Origin: an uncultured delta proteobacterium
Lineage (GTDB): Bacteria; Desulfobacterota; Binatia; DP-6
NCBI GenBank assembly: GCA_963815115.1
Contig: CAWFFN010000012.1
Span: forward strand, 480,001 to 544,000
Length of the DNA stretch: 64,000 nucleotides
Reading direction: 5' to 3'
Part shown: positions 10,607 through 24,637 of the stretch, piece by piece
How the letters are laid out: each line of letters opens with the position of its first letter
How positions within the stretch are numbered: the first letter of the stretch is position 1
Notes under the pieces: generated by a model
Told to the model about the DNA's origin: nothing
Seen by the model: only the letters and a program-made list of their open reading frames with translations
Databases searched by the model: none
Made by a program: the position numbers and the translations under genes

Positions 10607-13024
<2,418 letters not shown>

Positions 13025-14594: not shown

Positions 14595-15005
14595 GTGAAG
14601 CGCCTCGAGCTCAAGCAGGTGCGCGTCTGCTCCAAGTGCGGCCGCGGACGCGCGGAGCTCGAGAGCCCGGACGGCGATCGTCTGGAGGTGCCTCTCGACG
14701 CCGCGCGGGCGCACGAGCTCTCCGGGCGTCCGGACGACGTCCGCTCGCTGAGCGCCCTGGTGCTCGAGCAGCTCGCTGCCGGCGGTGCCCGGCCGCGGGA
14801 GGTGGTGCTGGACGTCGGCGCGGCCGGCCTGCGCGCGCTGCTGTCGTTCATCCGCGGCGAGGAGAGCGATCTCGTGGCGTGCACGGCACAGGAGGGGATC
14901 GGGCTCGCCGTGCGCGGCGCGCTGGCCCTCTACGCCACCGACGAGGCCCTCGCCCTCGACCGCGACAGCGCGGGCGACCGCGGACCCGACAGCACCGTCC
15001 ACTAG
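14595..15005 (+). CDS. Bifunctional-nuclease (DUF151)-like protein, divergent
   Basis: Size and C-terminal pattern (GIGLAVRGALALYATDEAL) resemble DUF151; recognised by eye only. Confidence 0.5.
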   Translation: MKRLELKQVRVCSKCGRGRAELESPDGDRLEVPLDAARAHELSGRPDDVRSLSALVLEQLAAGGARPREVVLDVGAAGLRALLSFIRGEESDLVACTAQEGIGLAVRGALALYATDEALALDRDSAGDRGPDSTVH

Positions 15006-15022
15006 CGCTCGCCGATCGACGG

Positions 15023-16243
15023 TCATCCCGCGTCCATGCGGTATGCACGCAGCGCCGGGATCGTCGCGGCCACGATCGCGAGCACGACCAGGCACCCGAC
15101 CCCGCCGCTCACCACCGCGAACGGCGCGCTGGTGAGCGCGGCGACGAAGCCGGACTCCGCTGCGCCGAGCTGATTCGAGGCGCCGATGAAGAGCAGGTTG
15201 ACCGCGCTCACCCGGCCCCGCAGCTCGTCGGGCGTGGAGAGCTGGATGGCCGTGCTGCGCATCACCACGCTCACCTGGTCGGCGGCGCCGACCAGCATGT
15301 AGGCGGCCACCGAGAGCGGGAACCAGCGAGACAGGCCGAAGGCGATCGTGGCCAGGCCGTAGACGGCGACGCCCGCCAGCAGCGCGCGCCCCGTTCGCCG
15401 GATCGGCCGCCGCAGGACGAGGACCGCCGACGTGACCAGCGCCCCGATCTCGAGCGACGAGGTGAGCAGGCCGTACCCGCGCGGGCCTACCTGCAGGATG
15501 TCCTGCGCGAAGATCGGGAGCAGGGCTGCGGCGCCCCCGAAGACCACGGCGAACATGTCGAGCACCATGCAGCCGAGGACGACGGGACGGCGGCGCACGA
15601 AGACGAGCCCTTCGCGCATCGCGCGCAGGGACGGCGCCGCCCGCGGGCCCTCGGAGCGTCCGGGCCGGACGAAGGCGAGGGTGACGAGCGCGCCGCACAC
15701 GAGCACCACGTAGGCCGCGTAGACCGTCGCGATCCCGGCGGCCGCGATGAGCAGCCCCGCGAGGGCGGGGCCGGTGGCGAAGGCAAGCGCCTGGTTGGTG
15801 GTCGCGATGGTGACGGCGCGCGGGAAGATCTCGCGCGGCACCAGGGTCGGCAGCAGCGCCGCGCGGGAGGGGTTCTCGAAGGCGGACGCCACCGCGACCA
15901 GGAGGATGATGCCGTAGAGCAGGCGCACGGTCACGTGGCCTCCCGCCGTCGCCCACCACAGCACGCCGGCGCTCGAGAGCGCCAGCGTCTGCGCCGTCAT
16001 CATGATCCGGCGGCGATCCCACACGTCGGCCAGCGTTCCGGCGACGAGGAGCAGGCCGAGCGCCGGAATGAACTGCACGGCGCCGATGAGACCGAGGTGG
16101 AAGGCGGAGCTGGTGAGCGCGAACACGTGCCAGGCAATGCCGGCACGCAGCATCGTCATCGCGACCGCCGAGCAGAACCGGCTCGAGAGGTAGGCGACGA
16201 GGTTGCGCGACAGGACGGGCGGCGCGCCTCCATGATCGGGCAT
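15023..16243 (-). CDS. MFS transporter (EntS/MFS_3-like)
   Basis: About 12 TM segments, GTLADVWDRRRIM motif A, TPDELRGRV. Confidence 0.9.
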   Translation of the reverse strand: MPDHGGAPPVLSRNLVAYLSSRFCSAVAMTMLRAGIAWHVFALTSSAFHLGLIGAVQFIPALGLLLVAGTLADVWDRRRIMMTAQTLALSSAGVLWWATAGGHVTVRLLYGIILLVAVASAFENPSRAALLPTLVPREIFPRAVTIATTNQALAFATGPALAGLLIAAAGIATVYAAYVVLVCGALVTLAFVRPGRSEGPRAAPSLRAMREGLVFVRRRPVVLGCMVLDMFAVVFGGAAALLPIFAQDILQVGPRGYGLLTSSLEIGALVTSAVLVLRRPIRRTGRALLAGVAVYGLATIAFGLSRWFPLSVAAYMLVGAADQVSVVMRSTAIQLSTPDELRGRVSAVNLLFIGASNQLGAAESGFVAALTSAPFAVVSGGVGCLVVLAIVAATIPALRAYRMDAG

Positions 16244-16382
16244 CGTCGGGCGCTCTTTGCCCGTGTCGTGACCCGAGTAAAGGGGGCGGCGCGGCCCGCA
16301 GTGGTTGCGGGCCGCGCACGATGCGCGTATGCGCACGGGCGATTTGACGCGAGAACGAACCCTCACGATCCGCCCCTGAGCC

Positions 16383-17441
16383 ATGTCATACGACGATGCG
16401 CTCGTGAGCCGCGTGCTCGCCGAGGCTCGCGCCGACGTCCAGGCCGAGCTCGAGCGCGTCTTCGCGCGGCGCCGGCGGACGGGCTACGGGCCGCTCTACG
16501 ACCTCCTCGCGGACTACCCGTTCCGCGAGGGCAAGGGGTTGCGGCCGGCGATCTGCTTCGCCGCCTGCCGTGCGGTGGGTGGGCTCACCGGGCAGGCGCT
16601 CCTCTCGGCCACGGCGCTCGAGCTCTTCCACAACGCCTTCCTGGTGCACGACGACGTCGAGGACGGCTCGCAGTTCCGGCGGGGCAAGGTGACGCTCTTC
16701 GAGGCGCACGGCGTCCCCGTGGCGGTGAACGTCGGCGACGCCACCAACGTCCTGGCGCTCGACCTGTTGCTGGGCAACACGACGGCCATCGGCGTGCGCA
16801 AGGCGCTTCTCGTCTTCCGCGAGGTGGAGCGCATGGCACGCGAGTCGGTCGAGGGCCAGGCGATCGAGCTGGGCTGGATCGCCGAGGGCCGCTTCGATCT
16901 CGGCGACCGCGACTACGTGCGCATGGCCTACAAGAAGACCTGCTGGTACACCGTCATCGCGCCGCTTCGCATCGGCGTCCTGTGCGGCAGCCCGCCCGGT
17001 CCGCTCGCTCCGCTTGACGAGGAGCTGACTCCCCTCCTAGACCTCGGATTCCTTGCGGGCATCGCGTTCCAGATCCACGATGACCTGCTCAACCTCGAGG
17101 CCGACGAGACGCTCTACGGCAAGGAGATCAGTGGCGACCTGTGGGAGGGCAAGCGAACCGTGATGCTGTTGCACTTCCTGCGCACGGCGAAGGGCGCCGC
17201 CCGCGCCCGGGCACTCGAGCTGCTGCGCACGCCACGGCAGCTCAAACCGGCGGGGGAGGTGAGCTGGCTGCACGCGGCGATGCGGGAGCAGGGATCGCTC
17301 GACCACGGGCGCAAGCTGGCGGTCGAGTACTCGGAGCGGGCGCTCGAGGCCGATGCCGGCGGCCCGTCGTTCTGGCGGGACACCGAGGATCGGCGCTTCC
17401 TGCGTGAGATGCTGCGGTACGTGATCGATCGCATCAAGTGA
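16383..17441 (+). CDS. Trans-isoprenyl diphosphate (polyprenyl) synthase
   Basis: GKGLRP, first Asp-rich motif LVHDDVED..RRG, NVGD, GQAIEL, KKT, second motif FQIHDDLLN, GDLWEGKRT. Confidence 0.93.
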   Translation: MSYDDALVSRVLAEARADVQAELERVFARRRRTGYGPLYDLLADYPFREGKGLRPAICFAACRAVGGLTGQALLSATALELFHNAFLVHDDVEDGSQFRRGKVTLFEAHGVPVAVNVGDATNVLALDLLLGNTTAIGVRKALLVFREVERMARESVEGQAIELGWIAEGRFDLGDRDYVRMAYKKTCWYTVIAPLRIGVLCGSPPGPLAPLDEELTPLLDLGFLAGIAFQIHDDLLNLEADETLYGKEISGDLWEGKRTVMLLHFLRTAKGAARARALELLRTPRQLKPAGEVSWLHAAMREQGSLDHGRKLAVEYSERALEADAGGPSFWRDTEDRRFLREMLRYVIDRIK

Positions 17442-18013
17442 GAGGACGGCGCATGCGCGTGGCCAGCGATCCCCCCGACGAGCAGCGCGGCCCCTTCACC
17501 GAGCTGCTCCGCCTGCAGAGCGAGTTCCAGGCCCGCCTGGCCGACGAGACCCTGCGCTATCTCCGCCGGCTGCAGGGGGCGTTCGCCCCGGCTGCGCCGG
17601 GAACGGTGGTCGTGCCGGACGGCGACGGCGAGCTGCGGGCGGCGGGAAGGCCGGGCGATCGGGTGGCGCTGCGGCTCGAGGCCGAGAATCGGCAGCGGGT
17701 CCACTGCCTGGTGACGCCGATGCTGACGCCGCTGGTCGAGCGCACCGGAACGACGTGGTTCCCGGCCGCGGACCCGGCTCCGACGTCCACGCTCCTCGCG
17801 CCGGGCGAGGTCGGCGCCGTGGCGGTCGATCTGGCGCTGCCCGCCGAGCTGCCGCCCGGCATCTACAAGGGTGCCCTCGTCCTGCAGGGATTCCGCGAGG
17901 GTGGCGTGCCGGTCACCGTGGAGGTCGAGGGCGAGCCGCCCGCGGCGCCAGCGCGCCGCCGTCGCGCGAGCCGCCAGCGGTCGCGGAAGGCGGTGCGGAG
18001 GCGGCGGCGATGA
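17438..18013 (+). CDS. Hypothetical protein: N-terminal amphipathic helix, Ig-like beta domain, Arg-rich tail
   Basis: GTGA/ATGA coupling on both sides; LAPGEVGAVAVDLALPAELPPGIYKGALVL is a beta-sandwich-type pattern. Confidence 0.8.
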   Translation: MRGRRMRVASDPPDEQRGPFTELLRLQSEFQARLADETLRYLRRLQGAFAPAAPGTVVVPDGDGELRAAGRPGDRVALRLEAENRQRVHCLVTPMLTPLVERTGTTWFPAADPAPTSTLLAPGEVGAVAVDLALPAELPPGIYKGALVLQGFREGGVPVTVEVEGEPPAAPARRRRASRQRSRKAVRRRRR

Positions 18014-18588
18014 GCCGTGCGCCGACGAGTGGACGGGTACGGCTGGTCGACGCGGCCGCAGGACCAGGCCGCACGACGGCCACTCTGCTGGCGTCGCTCG
18101 CGGCTCGCCTCGGAACGCTTCACTTCGTCTCGGGAACGGCCGCCGTCGGATCGATGGTCGCGGGCTTTGCTGCCCTCGGTCGCGAGGTCGGCCGCACTGT
18201 CGAGGGTGCACGACTTCGGCGGGCCCTCGAGGCGAGCCGCGCCGGGACCAACGGCGACGCGCTCTGGGGAACGCTCGCGATCGGCGACTGGTCGTCGGGT
18301 CTGCCGCCGAGTCCCATCCTCGATCACCTGCGCAACGACCTCGCGCTGCTGCTCGCCGACGACCTCGAGGACACCCTGGCGCTGCTCCCCATCCCGGGCG
18401 AGGCGGCCGGCGCCCAGGCCTCCGACGACGACCAGCCGGCCACCTTCGCCGACTGCGTGCTCGGCCTGTGGGCGTTCGCGCGCGAGATCGCGCGGTCGGT
18501 CGACGCCCTGGTGAGCGCGACGCTGCCGCCCCCGGACGCGGTGACGACCGCACCGGAGCCCGAGGGCACGGGCCCGTTGCTGCGCTGA
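18010..18588 (+). CDS. Hypothetical, predicted mostly helical protein
   Basis: ATGA overlap at 18010; GC3-rich codon usage; ends 13 bp before the next gene. Confidence 0.75.
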   Translation: MSRAPTSGRVRLVDAAAGPGRTTATLLASLAARLGTLHFVSGTAAVGSMVAGFAALGREVGRTVEGARLRRALEASRAGTNGDALWGTLAIGDWSSGLPPSPILDHLRNDLALLLADDLEDTLALLPIPGEAAGAQASDDDQPATFADCVLGLWAFAREIARSVDALVSATLPPPDAVTTAPEPEGTGPLLR

Positions 18589-18601
18589 CCCCGGCTCGCC
18601 C

Positions 18602-19603
18602 ATGATCCAGGCCGACGCGCTCCGACCGCCCTCGCCGCTCGACTCGAACGCCTCGGCCTACAAGGACTGGCTCCACCTGAACGTGCTGGACCACGCCTCC
18701 GGCACCGTCGGCCTGGTCAACGTCTCGCTGCACGGGGCGCCGGACGACACGCGCTCGCGCGCCATCGGGACGGCGCTCCTCCACGTGCCCGGCGTCGGGT
18801 GGGTCGGCAACGTCGAGGCGTGCGGGCAGTCCGAGGCGCGGGTGGGCGTCGGCAGCGTGGCGCTGGCGCAGGTGGCGCTGGCGCTCGACTATCCGGCCGG
18901 GCGGGCGCTCGCCTCGGCACGCTTCCCGGACGAGGCCCTCGCGCTCCGCATCGCGGCGAGCGCCCGGGCGCCGGCGATCGACCTCGAGCAGCGGCTGCCC
19001 CTCGGCCCCGGCTGGGTGTCGTGGTACATCGTGCCGCGACTGGCAGTGGAAGGCGAGGCCCTGGTCGGGCAGCGGCGAATCGACCTCGCAGGCGCCAGCG
19101 CCTATCACGATCACAACTGGGGACGCTGGCACTGGGGCGACGATCTCGGCTGGGAGTGGGCCGCGTTCCTCACGCCGGCGCCGGGCCCCGCCTTCGTGCT
19201 CTCGCGCGCCACCGATCGCGCGCACCGTCACGTGGGGAACCCGGTGCTCGTCGTGCAGGTCGGCAAACGCCGGCGGACGTTCGGCGGTCGCACCGTGGAG
19301 CTCGACTACGCGGGACGGCTCGGCGGCCGCATCCGCCGGCTGCCGGGCGCCCTCGCGGCGCTGCACCAGGATCGCGCGACCCCGTCCCTGCCCGTCCGTC
19401 TCACGGTGCGGGCGGACGACGGCCGGGACCGGGTCGAGATCGAGTTCACGGCACGCGCCGCCGCGCAGCTCATCGCCGGCGACCCCGCCGTCCGGGGCTA
19501 CGGCTTCATCCACGAGATCGTGGGCGCCTTCGCGGCCTGCGGCCGGATCGGCGATCACGACCTCGCCGGCAGTGGCCTCGCGGTGCTCGAGCATGTCGAC
19601 TGA
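18602..19603 (+). CDS. CrtC/AttH/tocopherol-cyclase-like beta-barrel enzyme (hydratase or cyclase)
   Basis: N-terminal YKDWLHLN and central AYHDHNWGRW..WEW resemble motifs of the carotenoid 1,2-hydratase / tocopherol cyclase superfamily; beta-rich. Confidence 0.65.
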   Translation: MIQADALRPPSPLDSNASAYKDWLHLNVLDHASGTVGLVNVSLHGAPDDTRSRAIGTALLHVPGVGWVGNVEACGQSEARVGVGSVALAQVALALDYPAGRALASARFPDEALALRIAASARAPAIDLEQRLPLGPGWVSWYIVPRLAVEGEALVGQRRIDLAGASAYHDHNWGRWHWGDDLGWEWAAFLTPAPGPAFVLSRATDRAHRHVGNPVLVVQVGKRRRTFGGRTVELDYAGRLGGRIRRLPGALAALHQDRATPSLPVRLTVRADDGRDRVEIEFTARAAAQLIAGDPAVRGYGFIHEIVGAFAACGRIGDHDLAGSGLAVLEHVD

Positions 19604-20162
19604 TCCAGCCCTGCCGGCCGGGCCGCGGTCGCTCGGAGGGTACGTCGCCGCGCTGATCGACGAGCTCGGTAGAGGGGACCGCGAGGCACTGGAGCGCATG
19701 CGAGGCATCGTCGGCCGCCGGCGCGCGCGCATCGCACTCGACGGCGAGGTCGTCGACGTGGCGTTCGGGCACGATGGGATCGCCGTCGTGCCGGCGACGG
19801 GCGGAGCCGTCGACGGGGAAGGCGCAACCGATCGCCCGACCGTGCTCGGCCTCCTCGACGGTCACCTCGAGGTGACGGATGCGATCCTCGACGGCAGGCT
19901 CCACGTCCGCGGCACCACCGACGCCGTGGTCCGCATCTTCACCGCGATCGAGATACTGCTCGACGCCTCACCCCGCCTGCCGGCGCTCCAGCGGCTGTCG
20001 TCACACTTCCGTGCGAGCCTCCCCCGCCTGCCCCGCGCCGAGCCGATCGCCGGAGCGCCGGTGCGGCGCGCCGCCTGGTTCCCGGAGGAGCGGGCGGCGA
20101 GCGAGGACGCGGTGCTCGCGCGTCACGGCTTGCTGCCCGAGCCCGGCGACGGGGCGGCGTAG
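19593..20162 (+). CDS. SCP2 sterol/lipid-binding domain protein
   Basis: TVLGLLDGHLEVTDAILDGRLHVRG matches the SCP2 C-terminal pattern; overlaps the upstream gene by 11 bp. Confidence 0.7.
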   Translation: MSTDPALPAGPRSLGGYVAALIDELGRGDREALERMRGIVGRRRARIALDGEVVDVAFGHDGIAVVPATGGAVDGEGATDRPTVLGLLDGHLEVTDAILDGRLHVRGTTDAVVRIFTAIEILLDASPRLPALQRLSSHFRASLPRLPRAEPIAGAPVRRAAWFPEERAASEDAVLARHGLLPEPGDGAA

Positions 20163-20163
20163 G

Positions 20164-20192
20164 TTGACGCTGTCCATGGCCGGTGCGATGAT
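20164..20192 (+). promoter_or_regulatory. Possible internal sigma70 promoter before the second half of the operon
   Basis: TTGACG-17 bp-GATGAT with an extended TG, in the only sizeable gap (59 bp) of the operon; GGAGG RBS before 20222. Confidence 0.45.
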
Positions 20193-20221
20193 CTCGTGCA
20201 CCTGACCGGCCGGAGGAAGTC

Positions 20222-20671
20222 ATGGGCGTCCCATCGACACTCCACATCGACATCTCCCACCTGCCCAACGTGGCGGTCACCGGCATCGGGCCCATCGGAT
20301 CCGTCGGACCGGTGACCGTCGCCGGAATCCCGGACCACTTCCACATCAGCATCGACAAGCTGCCGGACACGATCCCGAAGATCCAGCTCGGGATCGATCC
20401 CCTCGAAGTGAAGCCGCTGTCGATCGCGCTGTCGGTGAAGGAGATGCCCTCGATCCGGGGCCATCTCCCGGCGGACTTCACCGTCGGGCTGTCGCTGCTC
20501 GGCCTCGAGCTGCTGTGCGTGCGCCTGTGCGGCGAGGCCCAGATCATCACCGAGCCCTACCAGCCGAATCCATGCGAGCGCTGTGGCGAGACGTTGCGAC
20601 CCGTGCCGCTCCCTCCTCCGGTGGCAACGGTGCCGGGGGGTGACGCGGGCACGAGGCGCGGCCGGAGCTGA
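20222..20671 (+). CDS. Hypothetical beta-rich protein with C-terminal Cys motifs
   Basis: GGAGG RBS; Ile/Val/Pro/Gly-rich internal repeat; CVRLCGE and NPCERCG. Confidence 0.8.
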   Translation: MGVPSTLHIDISHLPNVAVTGIGPIGSVGPVTVAGIPDHFHISIDKLPDTIPKIQLGIDPLEVKPLSIALSVKEMPSIRGHLPADFTVGLSLLGLELLCVRLCGEAQIITEPYQPNPCERCGETLRPVPLPPPVATVPGGDAGTRRGRS

Positions 20672-20674
20672 GCA

Positions 20675-21406
20675 GTGGCTGCGGTTTCGGACCGCTCGTC
20701 TGCCGTCCGCCTCCGGGGACACCCCGGCGGCCTGGCAGGACATCTCGTCTGGCCCGAGGTCGGACCGCAGCTGGTCACGGTGCAGCTGGCCCTCGGCGAG
20801 CCCAAGGAGACGCCGGTGGTCGCACACGTCCTGCCCGTCGGCGGCAAGGGACTGTGCAGCCTGGAGATCACCCTCCCCACCTGGACACCGCCGGGCAGCT
20901 ACCAGGGCACGGTGCGCGTCGGCGACGAGGAGCGTCGCATCGTGGTCGACGTCGAGCCGCGAGCGCGGCTGCAGGTCGCGCCGCGCCTGCTCTCCCTGCG
21001 AGGGCGCCCGAAGGACAGGGTGCAGGCGGAGGTGCAGCTCTCGAATGTCGGCAACGTGGCGACGGAGGTGCGAGGCGCCTACCTCTTCGCGCTCTACGAC
21101 CCGTCGACGCTCGAGCGTGCCACCGCGCGCGCGTTCGTGTCCGGGGGAACGACGAGTCTCGAGTTCGGCGACGAGATGGTCGCAGGGCTCCGGGAGGGAT
21201 TCGCCGGCATGGTGCGGCTCAAGGTGGATGCGGGCGCAGGGCCGCTCGAGCCGGGGGACGGCCGATCGCTCCAGGTCACCCTGCATCTTCCGGAGGGGCT
21301 GCGATCGGGGCAGACGTACGAGGGGACCTGGCGGATCGACAGCCTGGGCTACAACATCGAGGTGGAGGCCGCAGACGGCACGGCTCCCGAGGAGACGCCG
21401 AGATGA
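20675..21406 (+). CDS. Hypothetical protein with two Ig-like beta-sandwich modules
   Basis: LPTWTPPGSYQGTVRV and LEPGDGRSLQVTLHLPEGLRSGQTYEGTWRI; LSNVGN; no signal peptide. Confidence 0.8.
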   Translation: MAAVSDRSSAVRLRGHPGGLAGHLVWPEVGPQLVTVQLALGEPKETPVVAHVLPVGGKGLCSLEITLPTWTPPGSYQGTVRVGDEERRIVVDVEPRARLQVAPRLLSLRGRPKDRVQAEVQLSNVGNVATEVRGAYLFALYDPSTLERATARAFVSGGTTSLEFGDEMVAGLREGFAGMVRLKVDAGAGPLEPGDGRSLQVTLHLPEGLRSGQTYEGTWRIDSLGYNIEVEAADGTAPEETPR

Positions 21407-22045
21407 ACGGATCGCAGAGCGACAACCCGCTGGCGGGCATCTCCCAGCTGTTCACCGATCTGATCGACCAAGGCGTGCGCATGGGGTCCGACATCCTCGA
21501 CTCGCTGGGCAGCGGGCCTCTCGGCCAGCTCGCCGGGTCGATGCAGAAGATGCAGATGCCGTCCCCGCCGAAGCGCTGCGGCTGCGACATCCCGCCCCCG
21601 TGCTGGATGCCGAAGCCGCTCGGCGATCTCACCAGCCACGTCTGCCCCGGTGGAGCGGCCACCCTCCGGTTTCTGGTGACGAACTGCGGGCTCACGCCGC
21701 GTGTCGTGCACGTGCAGGCGACCGGCGCCTCGGCTGGCAAGGTGACGATCACGCCGGCCACGGCGACCATCGAGCCGTTCGAGCAGGTCGCCTTCGTGGC
21801 CTCGCTGGCGGTGCCCGCGGACGCGAGCGAGTGCCAGGCGGAGCACGTGCTCCTGTGGGTCCGGGGCTGTCACCTCCACTACCTCCGCTGGGCGGTCGAC
21901 GTCCGCTCGCGGGGCGGCCACGCGTGCCACGAGATCTGCGTCCAGGACTGCCCGGGATCTGGTGCATCACTGGTACGATCACTTCTACTGTCCGCGCCCG
22001 TGTCCGCACGAGCAGCAGCAGACGCCCGGGCGGACCCATGGCTGA
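21403..22045 (+). CDS. Cys/His-rich hypothetical protein (about 213 aa after correcting a frameshift at 21954-21956)
   Basis: ATGA overlap at the start. Removing one G gives ...CHEICVQDCPDLVHHWYDHFYCPRPCPHEQQQTPGRTHG*, with a stop overlapping the next ATG (ATGGCTGA). Confidence 0.75.
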
Positions 22046-22625
22046 TCCGGTCGGGCTCGACCAGGCCATGCGCCGGGCCCTCGAGGCCAACGCGCGCTAC
22101 TACGAGGCGCTCGGGCAGGTGACGGCCGACTACCTGAAGAGCCTTCTCGGCGTGCTCGGTGAGCTGCGCCTGCCGGCGCGCTTCGACGTGCAGGGGGCGT
22201 CGCCCGCGGCGCCTGCAGCGCCGCCGGCTCCGGCGCCCGCGATGGTGCTGGAGGCTGCCACCGGGGACGACGCGGCCGGTGCGTTCATGGTCCAGAACCG
22301 CCTGACGCAGAAGGTCGCGGCCCCGGTGGTGGCGTCGGCGTTTCTCGATCCGTCGGGGAACGAGGCGCGGCCCATACTCGCCTTCGATCCCGACGTCGTC
22401 GCGCTCGACCCTGGCGAGCAGATCCTGGTGCGCGTCACGGCCCGTGTCGACGACCGCCTCGAGCCGGGCGTCGCCTATCGCGGCGAGGTGACCATCCCCG
22501 GGCTCTCGGGCGATCGCATCCAGCTCGTGGTCCGCCGCCGTGCCGCCGCCAACGGCGGCGACGGCGCCGCGCCGCCCAGGCGGCGGCGCAAGGGGCACGG
22601 GCGCCGCGCCACGCGCGCGCGCTGA
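22038..22625 (+). CDS. Hypothetical protein, probable paralog of 17438..18013
   Basis: N-terminal helix, Ala/Pro linker, LDPGEQILVRV...LEPGVAYRGEVTIPG, Arg-rich tail; TGATG coupling to the next gene. Confidence 0.8.
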   Translation: MADPVGLDQAMRRALEANARYYEALGQVTADYLKSLLGVLGELRLPARFDVQGASPAAPAAPPAPAPAMVLEAATGDDAAGAFMVQNRLTQKVAAPVVASAFLDPSGNEARPILAFDPDVVALDPGEQILVRVTARVDDRLEPGVAYRGEVTIPGLSGDRIQLVVRRRAAANGGDGAAPPRRRRKGHGRRATRAR

Positions 22626-23470
22626 TGGCGCACGCCCCGCCGGGCGACCCGTCCGCGGGCGTCCTCGTCGGCGCCATGTGGTCGTATGCCGCGACCGTGC
22701 TGCAGCCGGCCCAGGCGCTGAAGCGCGCGGGGCTGCTGCCGGGGCTCGGGCGCCAGGGCGATCTTCCCCAGCCGAGCGATCGCCCCGGCCTCGGCCCGCG
22801 CTTCGCTCCCCGACATCCCACGCCCGTGCTGCTCGGCCGCGCCACCGAGCACGACCACCTCGTCGACGAGTTCGACCGCATGGCCGAGGTGTACGAGGCC
22901 TACGTGCAGCCCTTCTCCGGCCCGATCTTCGACGAGGCAATCGTCGAGATGCGCGCCTTCCTGCGCCCCGACTCGCGCGTGCTCGACGCCGGGTGCGGTG
23001 CGGGCCGCGAGCTCAGGCGGGTGGCGCGTCTCGTGCCCGCCGGCGAGGTGGTCGGGATCGATCTCGCGGCCGGAATGGTGCGCGCCGCCCACGGCGCCGC
23101 GCGGGCGTCGGGGCTCGACCACTGCGCCTTCTTCCAGGCCGACGTGGGCGAGTTGCCGGCGGAGTTCACCGGCGCCTTCGACCTGGTCTACAGCTCGCTC
23201 GCGCATCATCACTATCCCGACCCGCCTGCCGCAGCGGCCAGCGTGCTGCGCGTGCTGCGCCCGGGCGGCATCTCCTGCGTCGTCGATCCCGGCCCGGAGT
23301 GGTACACGCGGCTGAGCGCACCCATCGCCCGCTGGGCCGATCCGGGCTGGATTGGCTTCCACACCCCCGAGGCCTTCCAGGCGCTCTTCCGCGACGCGGG
23401 CTTCGCGCGCGCGGGATGGATCGATCTGCTGCCCGGCTTCGGGCTTGCGGTGGGGCAGAAGAGCTTCTGA
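22625..23470 (+). CDS. Class I SAM-dependent methyltransferase
   Basis: VLDAGCGAG, VVGIDL, FQADVGELP, FDLV, RVLRPGG. Confidence 0.92.
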   Translation: MAHAPPGDPSAGVLVGAMWSYAATVLQPAQALKRAGLLPGLGRQGDLPQPSDRPGLGPRFAPRHPTPVLLGRATEHDHLVDEFDRMAEVYEAYVQPFSGPIFDEAIVEMRAFLRPDSRVLDAGCGAGRELRRVARLVPAGEVVGIDLAAGMVRAAHGAARASGLDHCAFFQADVGELPAEFTGAFDLVYSSLAHHHYPDPPAAAASVLRVLRPGGISCVVDPGPEWYTRLSAPIARWADPGWIGFHTPEAFQALFRDAGFARAGWIDLLPGFGLAVGQKSF

Positions 23471-23488
23471 ACGTCCCGGGCGGGCTGC

Positions 23489-24637
23489 TCACGCCAGCCG
23501 GGGCTTCAGGCGCCACCGGATCAGCGCCAGCAGGCCGGCGAAGATGGCGAGGAGCGCGATGCAGGGCACGACGACGTCTGCGAAGCCCGCTCCCCGGGTC
23601 ACCAGCCGGCGAAGCGCGATCTGGTACCAGCGCAGCGGGAGCACGTCGCCGAGGAGGCGCAGCGGCGGCGGCATCAGCTCGTAGGGCAGCATGACGCCCG
23701 AGAGCACGAACGACGGCAGGATGAAGAACACGGTGATGAAGACGGCCTGTGCCGAGGTGCGTGCCAGCGCGGACACCAGGACCCCGATGGCGAGCGAGGC
23801 CAGCATGAAGGGCAGCGTGACGACGAGGAGCCCGAGCCAGCTTCCCTGCGGCCAGAGGCCGAACCCGAGCCCGCAGGCCAGCGTGGTGAAGGCGAGCAGC
23901 GCGTAGCCCACCCCCACCAGGGGCAGCAGCTTGCCGAGCACGATCTCGAGGGTCGTGATGGGAAGCGAGAGCGTCTGCTCGAATGTGCCGCTCTCGCGCT
24001 CGCCCACGATGCCGAGCGAGGACGAGCTCAGGCACAGGTTGGTGAGCAGCATGCCTAGGAGCCCGGCGAGGAAGAAGTTGCGATCCAGAAGGGTCGGGTT
24101 GAACCAGAAGCGCTGCCGCACGTCGATCGGCCCGGCCGCCCTCGCCATCGGGACGATGCCTTCGCGCCGAGGCGGCGCGTCCCCGAGGGAGAAGCCCGTC
24201 GCGACCTGGCTCACGATGCCGGCGACGCGGGCGGCCGTGATCGGGTCGGTTCCATCGAGCAGCAGCTGCACCTGCGGCCTGCCACGCTCGATGTCGCGCG
24301 CGAAGTCCCGCGGGATGACCAGCACCGCCACCGTCGAACCCCGCTGGAGCCTCGCCCGTGCCTCGGTGTAGCTCAGCAGGCGCTCCGGCTGCCGGAAGTA
24401 GCCGGTCGTCTGCATGTCCTCGATCAGACGGCGTGATGCCGCGCTCTCGGTACGGTCGATGATCGCCCAGGGTACGTTGGCGGGCTTGAAGGAGATGCCC
24501 AGCCCGTAGAGCAGGAGGAGCACGATCGGCTGGAACATCACCGAGAGGATGAAGCCCATGTCGTGGCGCAGCACCAGGGTCTGGCGATAGGCCACCGCGA
24601 GCATGTTGGAGACCGCCTGAGTCAGCCGCCCGCTCAT
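23489..24637 (-). CDS. ABC-2 type exporter permease (YbhR/YbhS-like)
   Basis: N-terminal TM, periplasmic domain, ERESGTFEQ, LGKLLP, six TM segments. Confidence 0.92.
   Translation of the reverse strand: MSGRLTQAVSNMLAVAYRQTLVLRHDMGFILSVMFQPIVLLLLYGLGISFKPANVPWAIIDRTESAASRRLIEDMQTTGYFRQPERLLSYTEARARLQRGSTVAVLVIPRDFARDIERGRPQVQLLLDGTDPITAARVAGIVSQVATGFSLGDAPPRREGIVPMARAAGPIDVRQRFWFNPTLLDRNFFLAGLLGMLLTNLCLSSSSLGIVGERESGTFEQTLSLPITTLEIVLGKLLPLVGVGYALLAFTTLACGLGFGLWPQGSWLGLLVVTLPFMLASLAIGVLVSALARTSAQAVFITVFFILPSFVLSGVMLPYELMPPPLRLLGDVLPLRWYQIALRRLVTRGAGFADVVVPCIALLAIFAGLLALIRWRLKPRLA

Follow-up and report, generated by a model that had tools for sequence, protein, structure and literature searches.

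A ten-gene cluster joining isoprenoid enzymes to conserved Ig-like proteins looks like an undescribed system of soil bacteria

The ten co-oriented genes at positions 16383-23470 of the DNA stretch analysed here (64,000 nucleotides; the window) look like an undescribed cellular system, one that is found in soil bacteria belonging to several phyla and whose tie to isoprenoid enzymes is well supported. Its role is a guess, and the reading we tentatively prefer is that of a cytoplasmic protein assembly holding or organising a dedicated C20 isoprenoid lipid pathway. A characterised pathway to which the cluster might belong, an objection foreseen in an earlier note on this DNA, was found neither in the family libraries (Pfam, NCBIfam, PADLOC) nor in the literature, where no description of this gene cluster turned up.

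All ten open reading frames lie on the forward strand and are coding, since GC3 is 0.86-0.93 against a GC2 of 0.44-0.60 in each of them, which confirms the ten real, co-oriented genes that the earlier note had read from the letters. They are under purifying selection, with dN/dS of 0.11-0.40 against the locus L003. The junctions (Table 1) also give exactly one gap above 15 bp, as had been claimed. Two gene boundaries had to be revised. G8 had been read as 21403-22122, but a 1-nt insertion sits in the CCCGGG run at 21951-21956, and the conserved C-terminus (D-L-V-H-H-W-Y-D-H-F-Y-C-P-R-P-C) lies in the next frame, which ends with a TGA at 22043-22045 and overlaps the G9 ATG; the start of G9 moves from 22119 to 22038. 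The start of G5 was placed by the N-termini of its homologs, the longest frame beginning at the upstream GTG.

Table 1. Features of the cluster, with positions in the window and the junction of each gene with the next.
Feature	Position	Strand	Description	Junction with next gene
G1	16383..17441	+	trans-polyprenyl diphosphate synthase, GGPP-synthase-like, 352 aa	overlap 4 nt
G2	17438..18013	+	N-terminal helix, Ig-like beta-sandwich, Arg-rich tail; paralog of G9, G7, G8	overlap 4 nt
G3	18010..18588	+	192 aa, no family; C-terminal G-x-L-L-R conserved, preceded by variable linker	gap 13 nt
G4	18602..19603	+	predicted AttH/CrtC-fold protein, 333 aa; candidate isoprene-double-bond hydratase	overlap 11 nt with G5 start ATG 19593; 32 nt with GTG 19572
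G5	19593..20162	+	weak SCP2-like lipid-carrier candidate; C-terminal L-L-x-R-x-x-L-L-P conserved	gap 59 nt
Promoter-like site	20164..20192	+	TTGACG-17-GATGAT, TG upstream; 1 found versus 0.1 expected; consensus match only	
G6	20222..20671	+	small and highly conserved, 149 aa; hydrophobic beta-hairpin, motif of 3-4 Cys, Pro-rich tail that varies	gap 3 nt
G7	20675..21406	+	243 aa; two beta-sandwich-like halves with T-P-P-G-x-Y-x-G motifs	overlap 4 nt
G8	21403..22045	+	helix, Cys-rich C-x-C-x-I-P-P-P-C-W, Ig-like domain, Cys/His-rich tail; 1-nt insertion 21951-21956	overlap 8 nt, once frameshift corrected
G9	22038..22625	+	N-terminal helix, Ig-like beta-sandwich, Arg-rich tail, 195 aa; paralog of G2	overlap 1 nt
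G10	22625..23470	+	class I SAM methyltransferase; conserved N-terminal extension of ~85 aa	

The genes fall into two five-gene modules, G1-G5 and G6-G10. We followed them through the best 80 of 400 metagenome loci, a census biased by its ranking on likeness to the window's G6 and by many related soil samples. Wherever a locus had room, G6 was followed by G7 (62/62), G8 (46/46) and G9 (37/37); the gene after G9 was G10 in 20 of 30 such loci and PPS2 or HEL in five. All ten families stood together in 15 of the 80 loci and in L003, so the unknown proteins do accompany a prenyl synthase and a CrtC-like gene elsewhere, as the earlier note had asked to be checked. Because the same genes come together again in other phyla, the arrangement is far beyond chance. 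The module is rare per genome (~3/401 in each of the two phyla sampled) but is found in several phyla. Both module orders were seen, in 5 and 10 loci. The point at which they are permuted is the G5/G6 junction, which in the window holds the only sizeable gap and, within it, the promoter-like site; G6 also has the strongest Shine-Dalgarno sequence of the operon, GGAGGAAGTC ahead of its ATG. The ten genes would form a single, horizontally spread system.

G6-G9 form a constant core. Variants A and B add different sets of enzymes to it, and type C lacks them. Variant B joins the core to a different polyprenyl synthase and to a geranylgeranyl reductase that passes TIGR02032 (200.5 bits, cutoff 158.8). 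Precursor-supply genes are found at the cluster as well, IspH adjoining it directly in 11/38 loci and Dxs lying immediately before G1 in one (L044). These neighbours and variant B strengthen the terpenoid link proposed earlier. IspH is not beside the cluster in the window, which fits a host genome in which we found no IspH and three HMG-CoA reductases. It is worth noting that in type C, a single lineage, the contig that carries G6-G9 shows no isoprenoid gene, which counts against the preferred explanation.

Among the enzymes, G1 is the prenyl diphosphate synthase it had been taken for (Pfam polyprenyl_synt PF00348, E 3e-45, 154.8 bits, cutoff 27). It carries the Asp-rich motifs DDVED and DDLLN, is the most conserved of the ten families (mean pairwise identity 0.75) and has a dN/dS of 0.11 against L003. 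Its best solved relative is geranylgeranyl diphosphate synthetase 1wmw (E 4.3e-56); since G1 stays below the NCBIfam GGPP-synthase equivalog cutoffs, a C20 product is a guess from that relative. G10 is likewise the expected class I SAM methyltransferase (Methyltransf_25, E 1.1e-21; Ubie_methyltran, E 5.8e-11), its best solved relatives being generic small-molecule methyltransferases (3bus, 6uv6, MitM). The CrtC/cyclase-like reading of G4 survives as a fold rather than as a family: G4 has no Pfam match, and none of 16 family members matches Pfam CrtC or AttH even at E up to 10, but its AF2 model (pLDDT 86.9, pTM 0.88) indicates an AttH/CrtC-type fold, with Foldseek matches to AttH (2ich, E 1.2e-11, TM 0.65, 17% sequence identity) and kievitone hydratase (7a0q, E 1.5e-9). 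As the Diels-Alderases CghA, Fsa2 and Phm7 and a 25-phosphosteroid lyase score nearly as high, hydration is no more than a candidate reaction for G4; among its protein-atlas neighbours are clusters in which 11-21% of members carry Tocopherol_cycl. In the G4 family, 15/15 members share the motif Y-x-D-H-N-W-G-R-W-x-W-G. For G5, called an SCP2 lipid carrier, the likeness stands at a level below threshold (E 0.036, 14.9 bits, cutoff 21.3), as it does in 10/16 family members (best E 0.0019). As noted earlier from the letters, phytoene/squalene synthase, desaturase, UbiA and terpene cyclase are absent; none of the ten proteins matches these families in Pfam.

The six proteins called unknown (G2, G3, G6-G9) indeed match no family in Pfam, NCBIfam (above threshold) or PADLOC, and their sole PDB sequence match is the Ig domain of G8, whose profile finds a HYDIN Ig/ASH-type repeat (E 2.7e-5). 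Profile comparison makes G2, G7, G8 and G9 paralogous Ig-like proteins: hhalign probabilities for G2 are 97.5% with G9, 94.9% with G7 and 80.6% with G8, and weak Pfam matches occur among family members (Ig_VWA7 in 18/34 for G8, fn3_5 in 14/31 for G9). G2 is always located in the G1-G5 module in other loci. A word search found only 15 G7 proteins in 5.8 billion. For G3, which has no profile match in the PDB, a set of 1.84 billion proteins contained only 88 representatives; its invariant residues include R108, N109, D110 and D118. Relatives of G6 number at least 590; none of them has a name, and none of the 120 listed carries a Pfam domain. The mean pairwise identity of G6 across phyla is 0.60, and R101, C103, G104, E105, Q107, C118 and C121 are invariant. 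The AF2 model of the monomer is poor (pLDDT 61), confident for strands 79-109 only, and neither Foldseek nor VIA-align found a structural neighbour. Three Cys are invariant in G6, and G8 has about nine near-invariant Cys and three His; for these residues a metal or redox function is equally possible as a structural one. A hydropathy scan gave no transmembrane-like segment, the G6 hairpin (1.69) being the one exception.

The absence of enzyme families from these proteins, the four Ig-like paralogs, the lack of transmembrane segments and the high conservation of G6 are the indirect signs from which we infer a possible structural role (coat, shell or filament). In the assembly that we tentatively favour, G1 would make a short diphosphate, probably C20 (geranylgeranyl), G4 would hydrate an isoprene double bond, yielding a tertiary alcohol, and G10, from the other module, would methylate the product, with G5 as a possible carrier of the hydrophobic chain. 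Hydration followed by O-methylation is also the order of the CrtC and CrtF steps in carotenoid synthesis. It counts against this scheme that no enzyme of the cluster has a known activity by which the diphosphate could be taken off or passed on. The soluble proteins of the constant part, G6 and the three paralogs G7-G9, would come together as a cytoplasmic particle, coat or scaffold that holds the isoprenoid lipid and its synthesising enzymes; the fourth paralog, G2, encoded among the enzymes, may serve for docking, as may the C-terminal peptides conserved in G3 and G5.

The same genes could instead form an ordinary biosynthetic cluster whose product is a small modified diterpenoid, perhaps one that is released, an unlikely reading that we nevertheless take seriously. 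G6-G9 would then be no structure but accessory or catalytic proteins, such as subunits with metal or redox activity or a terpene-modifying complex of a new kind. The Cys and His of G8 and the invariant Cys of G6 suit metal binding, some of the unknown proteins may supply the chemistry of the missing canonical terpene cyclase or phosphatase, and extra IspH or Dxs copies, such as those flanking the cluster, are typical of high-flux terpenoid clusters. However, four Ig-like paralogs and a small hairpin protein are unlike any known terpenoid enzyme, the core stays fixed while the enzyme sets vary or disappear, and no exporter was found conserved beside the cluster. In the way that ComQ, a polyprenyl-synthase homolog, prenylates ComX, the prenyl diphosphate might also be transferred onto a Cys or Trp that is conserved in G6 or G8, the modified proteins being the end product. 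Both variants always pair a polyprenyl-synthase-family gene with proteins bearing invariant C-W and Cys motifs, and the cluster encodes no other acceptor-forming enzyme; we still consider this improbable, as the G1 proteins of the window and of L003 share 90% identity and G1 is most like true chain-elongating GGPP synthases, no protein matches a protein prenyltransferase family in Pfam, and the hydratase, SCP2-like carrier, reductase and precursor-supply genes suggest a bulk free lipid, not a protein tag.

Two further readings concern G6 itself. That it is a distant GvpA-like shell protein, lining a gas-vesicle-like compartment with a hydrophobic surface, is very improbable: G6 is small and very conserved, its hairpin S-L-L-G-L-E-L-L resembles the S-L-V-G-I-E-L-L of GvpA, and its Foldseek rows include the shell entries 8gbs and 7r1c, yet every statistical test failed (E ~8 for those rows, hhalign probability 3% over 14 columns, PF00741 matched by 0/59 members, nothing at Z >= 2 in VIA-align) and the cluster has no other gvp gene. 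Hardly credible is the idea that G6 is the precursor of a ribosomal peptide, tailored by enzymes encoded nearby, whose leader would be the conserved 120-aa part and whose core would be the hypervariable tail. Leaders are usually much shorter and less conserved than that part, no modifiable residue is conserved in the Pro-rich, low-complexity tail, and neither a protease nor an exporter nor a RiPP tailoring family was found.

Several known systems resemble the cluster in part. In the soluble metabolon of quinone biosynthesis an SCP2 carrier (UbiJ/UbiT) works with UbiE, and a tocopherol-type route is also comparable; here a polyprenyl synthase, an SCP2-like protein and a UbiE-like methyltransferase are likewise combined, but a UbiA-type prenyltransferase, an aromatic head-group enzyme and a hydroxylase are absent, and G10 falls far short of all UbiE/MenG cutoffs. 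Phasins of PHA granules and lipid-droplet proteins are, similarly, small soluble proteins encoded beside enzymes for a water-insoluble product, and amphipathic N-terminal helices are found in G2, G8, G9 and the HEL protein of variant B. However, no phasin family was matched, no PHA synthase occurs among 116 flanking ORFs, and we know of no phasins with Ig-like domains or a Cys-rich protein. G4 shares its predicted fold with the AttH-like hydratases, namely the carotenoid 1,2-hydratase CrtC, kievitone hydratase and the archaeal hydroxy-GDGT synthase Hgs, although the carotenoid backbone genes are absent here. Members of the AttH family are reported to convert isoprene double bonds into tertiary alcohols by hydration (10.1101/2025.10.20.683597), and the Tyr, Asp, His and Trp invariant in the single G4 motif are the residue types reported as essential in CrtC (PMC4717167).

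A further comparison is with the family 2B encapsulins, reported as terpenoid nanocompartments (2-methylisoborneol and geosmin systems, and a type with polyprenyl-transferase cargo; 10.1101/2024.04.23.590730, 10.64898/2026.07.21.739788, PMC8346489). None of the ten proteins matches an encapsulin or HK97-type family, and where an encapsulin has one capsid protein, the cluster has four different small proteins whose assembly is proposed. Nevertheless, for G1 as well as for the synthase of variant B, the best NCBIfam match is the encapsulin cargo polyprenyl transferase model (153 and 89 bits, both far below the cutoff of 450), and family 2B encapsulins and this cluster have in common a genetic link between enzymes for terpenoids or prenyl chains and dedicated proteins of a non-enzymatic kind.

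The four proteins G6 to G9 form a constant module that is repeatedly joined to genes of isoprenoid supply (IspH, Dxs), elongation (two kinds of polyprenyl synthase) and modification (an AttH-fold protein, a methyltransferase and a geranylgeranyl reductase). In the window, this module lies in a cluster of ten co-oriented genes, G1 to G10, which an earlier note had claimed and which the open reading frames and their coding signal confirm. The window has about 72% G+C, and since G+C at third codon positions of the ten frames (0.86-0.93) is far above that at second positions (0.44-0.60), all ten are considered coding. The gene count of the earlier note stands, but two of its boundaries had to be revised, namely the start of G9 and, owing to a one-base insertion, the reading frame of G8. 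Neighboring genes overlap by a short stretch, in several cases 4 nt, or are separated by a small gap; the sole exception is the G5/G6 junction, with 59 nt between the genes. On its upstream side the cluster meets a divergent MFS gene and on its downstream side convergent ABC-2 genes; as these transporter genes are kept only in the close relative L003, we ruled them out as members of the system. No Rfam family matched within 15000-24500. PADLOC found no defence system, with nine of the ten proteins matching none of its models and the methyltransferase domain of G10 alone matching one (mad2).

Conservation of the module was examined in two collections. When one genome per species was searched with the G7 alignment, five loci emerged, in MAGs whose record titles read delta proteobacterium, Actinomycetes, Bifidobacteriaceae, Balneolaceae and Blastocatellia. 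L003 carries all ten genes at 60-90% identity, with dN/dS values of 0.11-0.40 relative to the window, and the other loci carry G6-G7-G8-G9. Scanning metagenomes with the G6 alignment confirmed 400 stretches, of which the best 80, those most like the window's G6, were kept; many of them come from related soil samples, so the counts best describe this branch of the family. Wherever the contig has room, G6 is followed by G7 (62/62), then by G8 (46/46) and then by G9 (37/37). The gene after G9 is G10 in 20 of 30 loci, a variant-B gene (the small helical basic protein HEL or the variant-B polyprenyl synthase) in five, and another gene in the remaining five. All ten families are present in 15 of the 80 loci, with the enzyme module G1-G5 preceding G6-G10 in five and following it in ten, and the break point of this permutation is exactly the window's 59-nt gap.

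The six proteins without annotation (G2, G3 and G6-G9) are kept together and in order in soil bacteria labelled Acidobacteriota, Actinomycetes, "delta proteobacterium", Balneolaceae and Fidelibacterota. Within individual phyla the system is rare: of 401 genomes each, three matched the G6 profile in the window's phylum, including the window's own and one marginal match, and three in the phylum holding L007, a variant-B locus; the G7 protein was found in 2 of 401 genomes. Being rare per genome yet present across several phyla, the system appears to have spread horizontally. In one locus, L051, short matches to G9, G8, G4 and G1 recur in inverted orientation beside the full cluster, together with a geranylgeranyl-reductase-like gene; this second set could be a further copy of the system or a decayed one.

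The isoprenoid partners differ between arrangements. Beside the ten-family layout (type A), variant B joins G6-G9 to HEL, a different polyprenyl synthase and a geranylgeranyl reductase, the last of which exceeds the TIGR02032 cutoff of 158.8 bits with 200.5 bits. A third arrangement, type C, has no isoprenoid gene nearby and adjoins PKS-like genes. Type C is one clade nested within type A, and its PKS association therefore counts as a single observation. In five type C loci (L056, L037, L031, L024 and L035) the PKS-like genes lie upstream of G6 and diverge from G6-G9, and L028 also belongs to this group; neighbors include a ketosynthase, a protein of about 1160 residues combining AT, DH and phosphopantetheinyl transferase, an alkaline-phosphatase-like phosphodiesterase and an alpha/beta hydrolase. 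Ketosynthase genes adjoin L057 and L091 as well. Among the flanking frames of 38 loci (118 called, 101 scanned, the remaining 17 scanned earlier or already assigned), IspH is the immediate neighbor of the cluster in 11 loci, and in one Dxs immediately precedes G1. No PHA synthase turned up among these 101 frames or among 15 others scanned. The window's genome, with an estimated completeness of 100%, has no IspH (PF02401) and three HMG-CoA reductases on contigs C8 and C9, which indicates a mevalonate-pathway host that needs no IspH copy. Such redundancy of the reductase is unusual.

The enzyme families of the cluster fit this isoprenoid setting to different degrees. G1 matches the trans-polyprenyl diphosphate synthase family PF00348 with 154.8 bits (cutoff 27; E 3e-45) and has the Asp-rich motifs DDVED and DDLLN, the second motif being D-D-x-x-N in the solved geranylgeranyl diphosphate synthase 1wmw. 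This enzyme is also its nearest solved relative (E 4e-56), and solely from it do we infer a C20 product; G1 scores under all NCBIfam cutoffs for GGPP-synthase equivalogs (NF041003, 133.2 of 500 bits; NF045685, 81.5 of 460; NF045549, 92.9 of 475). G10 is a class I SAM methyltransferase (PF13649, 77.8 bits, cutoff 27; PF08241, 72.2 bits, cutoff 21.2) with a conserved N-terminal extension of about 85 residues and generic solved relatives. G5 is SCP2-like: its PF02036 score of 14.9 bits is under the gathering cutoff of 21.3, weak matches to the same family occur in 10 of 16 homologs (best E 0.0019), and its C-terminus reads L-L-x-R-x-x-L-L-P.

G4 resembles CrtC and AttH in fold but differs from them in sequence family. 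Its confident AlphaFold model (pLDDT 86.9) aligns in Foldseek with AttH 2ich over 334 columns (E 1.2e-11, TM 0.65-0.67) and with kievitone hydratase 7a0q (E 1.5e-9), with further matches to fungal Diels-Alderases and a phosphosteroid lyase, and the double beta-barrel of the AttH fold is thus predicted for it. In contrast, none of the 16 family members matches the Pfam CrtC/AttH models at E values up to 10, and the family's only Pfam matches are weak ones to DUF2804 (three members) and DUF7064 (one). A protein-atlas neighbor is a cluster named carotenoid 1,2-hydratase family. The motif Y-x-D-H-N-W-G-R-W-x-W-G is invariant throughout the family and includes Y168, D170, H171 and W173, candidate counterparts of the catalytic residues of CrtC; according to the accessible part of PMC4717167, the essential residue types in CrtC are Tyr, Asp, His and Trp. 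[quoted passage not shown] Judging from family and fold, G1 would make a C20 diphosphate, G4 would hydrate an isoprene double bond, G10 would methylate, and the SCP2-like G5 would handle the chain.

Annotation offers little for the other proteins. G2 and three core proteins are paralogs, as hhalign relates G2 to G9, G7 and G8 with probabilities of 97.5, 94.9 and 80.6%, respectively, and they may share an Ig-like (ASH/PapD-like) beta-sandwich domain. The G8 profile matches the Ig-like HYDIN repeats (E 2.7e-5), all Ig-like Pfam matches being under cutoff (Ig_VWA7 in 18 of 34 G8 members, fn3_5 in 14 of 31 G9 members), and an N-terminal helix is common to G2, G8 and G9. Long Arg/Lys-rich C-terminal tails are frequent in G2, G9 and HEL and absent from many homologs; binding of a polyanion partner or of acidic lipid are possibilities for them. 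G3 belongs to a closed family with 88 representatives in 1.84 billion proteins and ends, beyond a variable linker, in a conserved G-x-L-L-R. A DDxxD-type motif considered in G3 was dropped, as D118 is the one invariant residue of its pair. Apparent G2-G3 and G3-G4 fusions among the 88 relatives proved to be mosaics of in-frame and out-of-frame sequence, that is, frameshifted gene calls, and the Rosetta-stone argument was therefore abandoned. A search of 5.8 billion sequences gave at least 590 relatives of G6, every one of them unnamed; the family has a mean identity of 0.60, none of the 120 relatives listed has a Pfam domain, and all 30 protein-atlas neighbors of G6 are unnamed clusters. The profiles of G3, G5, G6, G7 and G9 gave nothing significant against PDB sequences. 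By hydropathy, the cluster encodes no convincing transmembrane helix, a beta-hairpin of G6 being its sole segment with membrane-like values. A G6 homolog at L095 (E 1.5e-53) appears to contain two in-frame TAA codons and may represent a pseudogene, an assembly error or recoding.

The earlier note had read the cluster as a pathway to an unusual terpenoid, packaged with cytoplasmic structural proteins such as a lipid-body coat, shell or filament. This reading is supported in part: the link to an isoprenoid pathway holds, and the structural role is conjecture. Given that the core proteins belong to no enzyme family and have no membrane anchor, that they are paralogous and conserved, and that G6 has a strong ribosome-binding site, it is quite possible, if short of probable, that G6 assembles with the Ig-like paralogs into a particle, coat or scaffold. 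G2 and the C-terminal peptides that G3 and G5 carry may, with the same caution, be docking elements. More tentatively, and with considerable doubt, we propose that G6 with G7-G9 (and G2) is a novel bacterial cytoplasmic compartment or coat for a neutral isoprenoid lipid, to which enzymes would be docked by short C-terminal peptides. Such a coat, if real, would be a new organelle-like inclusion that soil bacteria of several phyla have acquired by horizontal transfer.

G8 has near-invariant Cys and His clusters and G6 an invariant region R-L-C-G-E ... C-E-x-C; under the main rival reading, which we regard as rather unlikely, the core proteins would be catalytic or metal-binding partners in a new terpenoid chemistry. 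Protein prenylation is improbable. A GvpA-like shell is more improbable still: none of 59 G6 members matches PF00741 (GvpA/J/M), hhalign gives a probability of 3%, Foldseek an E value of about 8, and VIA-align no match at Z of 2 or above. That G6 is a peptide precursor is hardly credible. The window's genome itself has a single PF00741 (GvpJ-like) gene on another contig (locus L009, E 1.9e-16), with a response-regulator-like frame in its neighborhood and no second match found in that genome.

The revised frame of G8 deserves separate comment. All G8 homologs have a conserved Cys/His-rich C-terminal tail, which in the window is shifted to the next frame by one extra base. G8 is intact at this site in L003, L002 and short-read contigs, and the insertion is probably a long-read artefact. 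The same extra G occurs in L004, an unrelated Actinomycetes MAG locus; the shared insertion could be either a systematic long-read error at the motif or a genuine recurrent change. Logan contigs from two soil runs cover the operon piecewise, and among the pieces listed none spans the insertion.

Coordinates of features in the window and at homologous loci
Feature	Location	Strand	Remark
Ten-gene cluster G1-G10	16383-23470	+	
Arg/Lys-rich tail of G2	17960-18013		
Sigma-70-like site	20164-20192		in G5/G6 gap; 1 observed, 0.1 expected
One-base insertion in G8	21951-21956		CCCGGG run; region 21946-21964
Start of G9	22038		revised
Stop of shifted G8 tail	22045		overlaps G9 start
Arg/Lys-rich tail of G9	22570-22625		
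Extra G in G8 of L004	about 11040-11062		same site as in window
Geranylgeranyl reductase, variant B	L007:13053-14585		outside window
HEL with Arg/Lys-rich tail	L007:14659-15012		
HEL with Arg/Lys-rich tail	L004:14056-14427		
Inverted second set	L051:1528-4579	-	
G6 homolog with two TAA codons	L095 (G682:C181:41057-44458)		
GvpJ-like gene	G000:C5:1330029-1330145	-	window's genome

Six of the ten proteins come from families without any annotation. If the core is catalytic, they hide a new isoprenoid chemistry; if it is a lipid-holding assembly, it would extend the known types of bacterial inclusion and provide a compact scaffold for the engineered storage of hydrophobic products. Either way, the cluster predicts that widespread soil bacteria make a C20 isoprenoid lipid, hydroxylated or methylated and as yet undescribed, and this could bear on lipid-biomarker work. 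Nothing described in the libraries and papers searched corresponds to the system, and a full-text search of the literature, with supplementary files outside its scope, found no description of the cluster. Only isolated features link the system to phasin-like coats, to gas vesicles or to the SCP2-containing quinone metabolon, and in each case a test of membership gave a negative result. Searches of Pfam and NCBIfam gave no encapsulin match for any of the ten proteins, and by sequence an HK97-type shell protein appears to be absent. The nearest analogue in logic is nevertheless the family 2B encapsulin systems, which, as far as the accessible part of the source describes them, enclose the synthesis of 2-methylisoborneol or geosmin; a lipid-holding core would add a new mode of terpenoid confinement beside them.
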